In this document: positions 59,671-60,138 of the stretch, piece after piece | Position numbering within the stretch: position 1 is the first letter of the stretch | How the letters are laid out: each line of letters begins with the position of its first letter | IMG/VR virus record: IMGVR_UViG_3300032138_000963 | Direction: 5' to 3' (one strand) | DNA length: 64,000 nt | DNA from: an uncultured virus (IMG/VR IMGVR_UViG_3300032138_000963) | Taxonomy: Duplodnaviria; Heunggongvirae; Uroviricota; Caudoviricetes | The notes under the pieces: model-generated | Seen by the model: the letters and a program-made list of their open reading frames with translations, nothing else | Database searches by the model: none | Told to the model about the DNA's origin: nothing | Program-made: the position numbers and the translations under genes

Positions 59671-60138
59671 ATGTCTCTCTTCGAATTCAGAATCCTCACA
59701 GACGACAAAGGTGTCTCAAACGAGGAGATGGTCGAGCAGGGGCTCGCGGCTATCCAGGCTGCCATCGCCATCAACGTCTTTCATTTGCGAAGGCATCCAG
59801 AGGACGTCTGCGTACTAGCCTGCGGAGCGGTCAAGTACGACTCGAAAAACAAAGACGTTTTGCTGATGATTTCAGAGATCAGCACCATTCCGGTTCTGAA
59901 GAAGAAAAAGAAGGGCCTCTGCATCGACATTGTGGCGGCCGATATCGCCATCAAGATTTTCGAAGGTTTGGATGTGTGGCCGCACATCTTTTTCAAGGGC
60001 GGCGGAATCTTCCACGTTGTCACCCAGGGACGCGATTGGGATGGCAATGTGATAGAATACGATCCGTCCGCAGAACTCGAACAACGGGGATTGGTAGTTT
60101 CCTACCAACCCGACAGCTGCAAGGCTTGCCGAACGTAG
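59671..60138 (+). CDS. Transglutaminase/papain-fold cysteine enzyme (putative maturation protease)
   Basis: GLCIDIVAA (helix-start Cys), FHVVT (His), YDPS (Asp) in triad order. Confidence 0.55.
   Translation: MSLFEFRILTDDKGVSNEEMVEQGLAAIQAAIAINVFHLRRHPEDVCVLACGAVKYDSKNKDVLLMISEISTIPVLKKKKKGLCIDIVAADIAIKIFEGLDVWPHIFFKGGGIFHVVTQGRDWDGNVIEYDPSAELEQRGLVVSYQPDSCKACRT

Follow-up and report, generated by a model that had tools for sequence, protein, structure and literature searches.

We call the whole 64,000-nucleotide stretch of uncultured virus DNA analysed here the window; within a conserved block of jelly-roll-type genes it encodes a 155-aa protein that we name TGL. Our analysis supports a description of TGL as a minimal single-domain protein of predicted transglutaminase/papain fold with a conserved Cys-His-Asp triad, at modest fold scores (Z up to 7.9); it represents a new family of a known fold. 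We favour, at a rough probability of 0.45, a role as a maturation protease that would cut particle proteins during assembly or maturation.

The TGL gene and its catalytic motifs

An earlier note on this DNA had reported a 155-aa open reading frame carrying G-L-C-I-D, F-H-V-V and Y-D-P-S, placed 1 nt past the last of three paralogues within a structural operon, and had read the motifs as a transglutaminase-like triad. The translation at 59671-60138 contains all three motifs (G82-L-C84-I-D86, F114-H115-V-V117 and Y130-D131-P-S133), and their spacing, C84-x30-H115-x15-D131, follows the canonical order on the canonical secondary-structure elements. The paralogues P1, P2 and P3 share 37-40% pairwise identity. 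The TAA stop codon of P3 occupies 59667-59669 and is followed by a single base, A, at 59670 and by the TGL start codon at 59671. The gene and the codons of its four invariant residues are:

59671..60138 (stop included), plus strand: TGL, 155-aa predicted transglutaminase-fold protein, ATG start
59920-59922, codon TGC: Cys84, putative catalytic residue
60013-60015, codon CAC: His115, putative catalytic residue
60061-60063, codon GAT: Asp131, putative catalytic residue
60118-60120: Cys150, fourth invariant residue

GC content by codon position is 0.55/0.34/0.67, in agreement with the adjoining genes. Direct reading of the 155 residues revealed no signal peptide, membrane segment or wall-binding domain, and the N-terminus, MSLFEFRILTDDKG, is without signal-peptide character.

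Extent and conservation of the family

A word-indexed search of 5.8 billion proteins returned 59 relatives of TGL at 52-91% identity, nearly all 152-160 aa long. All 59 come from metagenomes or metagenome-assembled genomes (MAGs), and none carries a Pfam domain or an informative name; one relative is labelled Planctomycetota. An exhaustive HMMER search of 1.84 billion cluster representatives gave only 17 matches at E ≤ 1e-3, with lengths of 84-169 aa, and therefore the family is small, stand-alone and self-contained. The one exception in length is an unrelated protein of 415 aa, and it is also the sole longer entry recovered from these representatives. With the TGL alignment A2 as a profile we obtained 71 proteins, all of 143-186 aa; as none of them carries a Pfam domain, they offer no bridge to PF01841.

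The family set used for conservation comprises 85 sequences, namely the window protein and 84 database proteins; a 415-aa ADH_N_2 protein (P0074) was left out. The earlier note had made its reading depend on conservation of the triad, and conserved it is: Cys84 is present in 84/85 sequences, His115 in 84/85 and Asp131 in 83/85, alongside Cys150 and Tyr56 (83/85 each). The misses in the triad trace to an 84-aa fragment (P0071) and to a 143-aa entry that is short at the C-terminus (P0046). Across an alignment that extends down to 26% identity, invariance is limited to four columns, C84, H115, D131 and C150. For four of ten orthologue pairs dS was measurable, and dN/dS lies at 0.07-0.18; dS could not be estimated in the other six, one of which (L029) is mis-registered by indels. 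TGL is thus a real, constrained gene, as its 85 family sequences and dN/dS values attest.

Cys150 is conserved like the triad (83/85), and its candidate partners C47, C51 and C153 are not general. A four-cysteine zinc site (C47, C51, C150, C153) was considered and rejected: it is complete in 54/85 sequences, and a distant clade is without C47 and C51. That clade has other C-terminal cysteines, and of the four only C150 is general.

Searches of family libraries gave little. The window protein has no match to Pfam at E ≤ 10 and none to PHROGs or NCBIfam, the latter returned only noise for 20 family members, and Pfam and PHROGs gave nothing usable for ten neighbouring genes. Among 20 distant members, three fall just under the threshold of Pfam Transglut_core (19.7, 19.6 and 17.5 bits against a cut-off of 23; E 1.1e-3 to 5e-3), three match DUF553, a sister family of Transglut_core, and none matches PF06035 (Peptidase_C93, LapG/BTLCP) at E ≤ 10. 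Given the absence of a Pfam match for the window protein and the sub-threshold scores of its relatives, we file TGL as a new divergent family and not as a member of PF01841; we call the family new because no library model matched it. PF01841 had no match across the related genome G001 either. Searches of the PDB by sequence gave only HisF and optineurin with profiles A1 and A2 (E 0.45-0.83), a sole match to mouse PNGase with the family member P0065 (E 1.3, aligned at the Cys motif, not significant) and noise with P0075. Scans of IMG/VR with A2, P0081 and P0075 found no relatives, and tblastn of TGL and of the neighbouring 212-aa protein against 50,697 phage records gave no match.

Predicted fold

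An AlphaFold2 model of TGL, built on 28 sequences, has a mean pLDDT of 87.3 and a pTM of 0.87. In the model, helix 84-97 begins at Cys84, and of two successive strands the first (113-121) holds His115 and the second (127-130) is directly followed by Asp131; this predicted placement is the papain/transglutaminase arrangement. This helix and strand placement, together with the fold matches, points to adjacency of the three triad residues.

When the PDB was searched with the model by Foldseek, no match reached E ≤ 1e-3. The highest-placed rows are LapG (7.2e-3), TgpA, a TGase, the putative cysteine protease 3isr, CPR-C4 and PNGase, with the yeast PNGase aligned at an rmsd of 2.4 over 63 columns. 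Among 48,161 representative chains compared by VIA-align, 12 reached Z ≥ 5 and none Z ≥ 8. The top match is a putative protease (3kd4_B; Z 7.9, rmsd 3.7, 122 aligned), followed by PeiP (6.0), PeiW (5.6), TglA (5.6), LapG (5.1) and 3isr (5.1), and lower down by PNGase (4.9), factor XIII (4.7) and TgpA (4.6); Rad4/XPC, N-acetyltransferases, TG2/TG3 and CPR-C4 are also on the list. Since Z values of 7-8 are common for unmatched models, we place weight on the uniformity of the list and not on any single score. A second VIA-align pass on the top Foldseek chains (best 50 of 996 aligned) returned the same families in nearly all rows, and nearly every row that could be placed by its title is a transglutaminase-fold or N-acetyltransferase-fold protein; the titles of some axonemal entries do not allow classification. 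TGL thus has the predicted fold layout and the triad order and spacing of the transglutaminase-like superfamily, at a score below the Pfam threshold.

In a library of viral structure models (BFVD), the second-best fold match is a 304-aa entry (E 5.2e-3), whose length suggests that it is gp34 of phage SSIP-1, discussed below.

A conserved block of jelly-roll-type genes

The earlier placement of the gene inside a structural block agrees with what we find, as TGL lies within a conserved block of jelly-roll-type genes. Its neighbours in the window are:

52329..53315, plus strand: 328-aa Gln/Pro-rich protein
53312..54640, minus strand: 442-aa protein with a poly-lysine centre
54839..55288, plus strand: 149-aa Gly/Ala-rich protein, conserved block member
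55459..56097, plus strand: 212-aa beta-rich protein with N-terminal G-[FY]-R-[FY]-[AS], the most conserved gene of the block
56201..57349, plus strand: P1, first paralogue, 382 aa
57346..58455, plus strand: P2, 369 aa, modelled as two beta-sandwich domains
58452..59669, plus strand: P3, third paralogue, 405 aa, stop 1 nt before the TGL start
60148..62070, plus strand: 640-aa Cys-/Pro-rich protein with a basic N-terminus, next gene after TGL
62070..62924, plus strand: 284-aa protein with a weak peptidoglycan-binding-like stretch, conserved block member
62928..63545, plus strand: 205-aa paralogue-like protein with a weak peptidoglycan-binding-like stretch

In one scan, metagenome contigs yielded 35 related loci with a conserved gene order: first the genes for the 149-aa and 212-aa proteins, then the P-family gene(s), TGL and the 640-aa gene, and last the two genes with weak peptidoglycan-binding-like stretches. 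A P-family gene stands directly upstream of TGL in 32 of the 33 loci that have upstream DNA; the exception is L027, where the 212-aa gene is directly upstream with no P gene between. The gap between the two genes is -8 to +3 nt in 28 of these 32 loci. The number of P-family copies per locus varies from 0 to 3, and P3 is the paralogue that the single-copy relatives of other loci most resemble. On the other side, the 640-aa gene comes next after TGL in 28 of 30 assessable loci and is missing in L033 and L034, the most distant ones. TGL is at least as well conserved as the shell-like genes. A contig of 54,767 bp, found with profile A1 in a MAG that bears the label Desulfobacterales, is syntenic with 22-64 kb of the window.

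In the P proteins the folded part is preceded by an N-terminal arm that is conserved (L-P-N-P...P-F-D-R, G-D-A-G-A-G). The model of P2, built from 43 sequences, shows two beta-sandwich domains (pLDDT 76.7, pTM 0.49). Foldseek returned 28 PDB matches for it at E ≤ 1e-3, of which double jelly-roll capsid proteins are the best (range 1e-4 to 9e-4; PBCV-1 at 1.0e-4, PRD1 P3 and STIV at 1.9e-4), with TM scores of only ~0.2. By VIA-align, the C-terminal domain matches jelly-roll proteins at Z up to 8.2, and PRD1 P3 aligns with P2 over ~200 residues at Z 6.8-7.0 and an rmsd of ~10. These matches are consistent with, and not proof of, P2 being a double jelly-roll shell protein. We regard the block as the probable virion module on the basis of weak fold matches and the absence of other candidates. 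Two P-family genes on short metagenome contigs each contain one in-frame TGA (L023:326-1531 and L024:90-1166), and both were left out of alignments A3 and A4.

The 212-aa protein may be the main shell component. Its conservation, at 63-87% identity and with 77 invariant columns across 13 sequences, is far above that of the three P paralogues, and Gln57, Gln76, Gln77, Gln135 and Lys105 are among the invariant residues. No relation between the 212-aa family and the P family was detected by hhalign (E 0.053). The 212-aa gene occurs in two copies in L034. In the translation, the 640-aa protein contains about four repeats of a small module that opens with C-C and has two more cysteines, joined by Pro/Lys-rich linkers. 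At the upstream end of the block, all eight Gln/Pro-rich proteins compared (seven orthologues and the window protein) contain 18-23% Gln, and all 14 poly-Lys proteins (13 orthologues and the window protein) have 14-30 Lys in their richest 60-residue stretch; in both, composition is conserved though the stretches do not align.

Further downstream, some related contigs encode a protein of 147 aa that combines a membrane anchor at its N-terminus with a peptidase inhibitor domain of the chagasin type (Pfam I42, E 3e-13), a type directed at papain-like peptidases. Its gene lies 8.5-9.7 kb downstream of TGL in three loci:

L040:9706-10146 (contig C1 of genome G001): I42 protein
L016:19705-20142: I42 protein
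L035:14272-14565: I42 protein

The window ends before the corresponding position, and no I42 protein was found within 10 kb downstream of TGL in L003, L008 or L011. L003 has a weak SLT-like gene further downstream.

The wider element

The window is phage-like in its gene content, with thymidylate synthase, superoxide dismutase, GrpE, RecT, SSB, a RusA-like resolvase, a helicase and a PrimPol-D5 primase, and with wall hydrolases (GH25, M23 and Amidase_2 with PG_binding_1 domains) encoded elsewhere on the element. Features outside the block include:

7556-9348, minus strand: 12 tRNA genes (Gln x2, Leu x3, Tyr, Pro, Arg x2, Asn, Glu x2)
11529-12173: Fe/Mn superoxide dismutase
20009-24983, minus strand: three large adjacent open reading frames (695, 526 and 433 aa), no significant family match
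39727-40368: GrpE homologue
40365-41123: Tad6 (Thoeris inhibitor) domain protein

Pfam and PHROGs recognised no portal, terminase, HK97-type capsid or tail family among ~70 open reading frames scanned in the 64-kb window. A search of sequencing runs turned up one DNA match, which may be the source sample itself, and listed none among RNA runs. We assign the element to an undescribed group of large phage-like viruses, noteworthy for related contigs that span 54 to 221 kb, for the tRNA array and for 64 kb with no recognisable tailed-phage head or tail genes.

Proposed role and alternatives

Expression of TGL is coupled to that of shell-like genes in nearly every relative, and therefore particle proteins are its likely substrates. 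As a core gene of the particle module, TGL would be expressed along with the jelly-roll-type proteins, its translation being coupled to that of the last P paralogue. The protein would be an active thiol enzyme in which Cys84 serves as the nucleophile, His115 as the general base and Asp131 orients His115. A thiolate/imidazolium pair of Cys84 and His115 would form a thioester with a substrate carbonyl, to be resolved by water. Among enzymes of this fold, proteases, isopeptidases and deamidases use water for this last step, and transglutaminases use an amine. Hydrolysis is favoured here because the characterised prokaryotic and phage members among the fold matches are hydrolases and because the P arm is conserved too; LapG, PeiW/PeiP and CPR-C4 we take to be hydrolases from their entry titles. 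Candidate substrates would be the P proteins at their conserved N-terminal arms, the 212-aa protein at its variable N-terminal extension and the core proteins of basic or low-complexity composition. Complex prediction of P3 with TGL scored 0.00 in two runs without controls, which is no evidence either way.

As possible cut sites, the earlier note had put forward Asn-Pro (NP) and Arg-Phe (RF) motifs, and each turns out to belong for the most part to a single protein family. Conservation of the NP motif, L-P-N-P...P-F-D-R, does not extend beyond the P family. As for the RF motif, R-[FY]-[AS], it is kept in 14/14 members of the 212-aa family and partly in P1 (5/8) and the 640-aa protein (13/29), but it is not significantly enriched: in the window it occurs in 3/9 module proteins vs 5/64 others (Fisher p = 0.054). 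We have accordingly set aside an RF tag as a module-wide signal, which is unproven at this p value and only partly kept outside the 212-aa family.

The same triad could serve a true transglutaminase, in which the Cys84 thioester would be formed on a Gln and resolved by a Lys amine, joining particle proteins by isopeptide bonds. We consider this unlikely, though deserving of attention. Fold and triad are as in factor XIII, TG2 and TG3 (Z 4.2-4.9), the block conserves the Gln/Pro-rich (8/8) and poly-Lys (14/14) proteins, and Gln57, Gln76, Gln77, Gln135 and Lys105 are invariant in the 212-aa protein. Gln-donor and Lys-acceptor substrates such as involucrin, SPRs and GerQ have compositions of this kind, and small single-domain cross-linkers of protein shells exist, as in the spore-coat Tgl of Bacillus. 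However, proteins that condense DNA or act as scaffolds would be just as likely to have poly-Lys and Gln-rich stretches, most characterised prokaryotic members among the fold matches are hydrolases, and Bacillus Tgl is absent among the matches listed. A more specific version, an enzyme-made chainmail in which TGL would link the Gln-rich, Lys-rich and jelly-roll particle proteins by isopeptide bonds, is decidedly unlikely; if true, it would be the first enzymatic capsid or core cross-linking in a virus of bacteria, as opposed to the autocatalytic HK97 type.

The remaining readings direct the protein elsewhere or deny it activity. PeiW and PeiP of methanogen phages cut pseudomurein, and their place among the best fold matches (PeiP Z 6.0 and PeiW 5.6; 5.5 and 5.6 in the second pass) brings up a particle-borne or lysis-associated peptidase that would cut host peptidoglycan links at entry or exit, as would the weak peptidoglycan-binding-like stretches in the two genes after the 640-aa gene and the weak SLT-like gene of L003. 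This seems very unlikely for a protein without a wall-binding domain, signal peptide or membrane segment on an element that already encodes GH25, M23 and Amidase_2 enzymes; the tight coupling to P genes, and a conservation no lower than among the shell-like genes, speak rather for an assembly factor. An enzyme of the thiol hydrolase or acyl-transferase kind with other targets (a deamidase, a deconjugating peptidase that frees particles of ubiquitin-like tags attached by the host, or a packaged effector directed at host proteins) is again decidedly doubtful: deamidases, N-acetyltransferases (Z 3.9-4.5) and PNGase also have this fold, and the I42 inhibitor of related contigs hints at interplay with cysteine peptidases, but the position between shell-like genes in 32/33 loci argues for a particle-directed role, and the anti-defence genes of the element, such as the Tad6-domain gene, are located elsewhere. 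Least probable, to the point of being hardly credible, is a non-catalytic structural or cement protein that has kept the fold in the manner of Rad4/XPC or band 4.2. Rad4/XPC and protein 4.2 do occur among the fold matches, and SSIP-1 gp34 is annotated as a structural protein; yet known inactive members of the transglutaminase fold have lost the triad, and the TGL family conserves no residue more strongly than Cys, His and Asp.

Comparison with known systems

The setting of TGL has one uncharacterised precedent, gp34 of the cultured phage SSIP-1, which is also the closest known case. SSIP-1 is described as a membrane-containing tailless phage with PRD1-adenovirus-type architecture (PMC6356626, PMC6260650), and gp34 is not mentioned in the SSIP-1 passages of these two papers. 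In the SSIP-1 record, gp34 is a 304-aa annotated structural protein. It has a transglutaminase-like core, as predicted for TGL, and lies in the particle-gene region of a tailless icosahedral bacterial virus, a parallel to the probable virion module around TGL. Its triad spacing is Cys-x32-His-x14-Asp, against Cys-x30-His-x15-Asp in TGL, and C114, H147 and D162 are invariant in the gp34 family (three sequences). An alignment of the two families by hhalign places C84/H115/D131 on C114/H147/D162 and Y56 on Y90, a weak match (E 0.0064, probability 5.9%). The two differ in that gp34 has a long C-terminal extension and passes the Pfam threshold for Transglut_core (E 8.9e-7, 29.6 bits), whereas TGL, at 155 aa, passes none.

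The bacterial transglutaminase-like cysteine proteases (LapG/BTLCP, TgpA, CPR-C4, 3kd4 and 3isr) have the predicted fold and the Cys-His-Asp triad in common with TGL. These proteases are hydrolases of specific protein substrates, but they are cellular, mostly exported or periplasmic, and larger; with neither a Pfam match nor an export signal, TGL falls outside LapG/BTLCP (PF06035, MEROPS C93). PeiW and PeiP are encoded by phages, and their catalytic domain of ~150 aa adopts the same fold (Z 5.5-6.0). They have wall-binding repeats, and their target is the host wall, whereas TGL is a bare domain coupled to shell-like genes. The catalytic core fold and triad of factor XIII and TG2/TG3 (Z 4.2-4.9) resemble those predicted for TGL, but animal transglutaminases have four domains and calcium control, and the animal multi-domain architecture of EC 2.3.2.13 (beta-sandwich, core, two barrels) is absent from the single 155-aa domain of TGL. 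With the cross-linking transglutaminases, including Bacillus spore-coat Tgl, there would be a possible parallel in action on an assembled shell with Gln- and Lys-rich partners.

The earlier note had likened TGL to the adenain-like proteases of eukaryotic jelly-roll viruses. What survives of this is an analogy of proposed role, that of a cysteine protease encoded with jelly-roll capsid genes and maturing particle proteins; it does not extend to membership. Adenain differs in fold and in residue order: the catalytic order of clan CE is His, Glu/Asp, (Gln), Cys (MEROPS), whereas in TGL Cys84 precedes His115 and Asp131, which places it outside the adenain type (MEROPS C5, clan CE). No clan CE entries are among the TGL fold matches listed.

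Implications

We know of no bacterial or archaeal jelly-roll virus with a dedicated maturation protease. Full-text literature searches gave no paper that ties transglutaminase-like enzymes to phage capsids or virions or to jelly-roll viruses, and the word 'protease' has no occurrence in the text of a survey of prokaryotic double jelly-roll viruses (PMC5894146).

The small size of TGL, its good model and its ease of expression make its role directly testable. Should TGL process or cross-link proteins of the particle, thiol enzymes linked to assembly would have emerged among prokaryotic jelly-roll viruses on a fold unlike that of adenain. This would amount to convergence with adenoviruses, virophages and giant viruses, and would give the uncharacterised gp34 of SSIP-1 a testable function.
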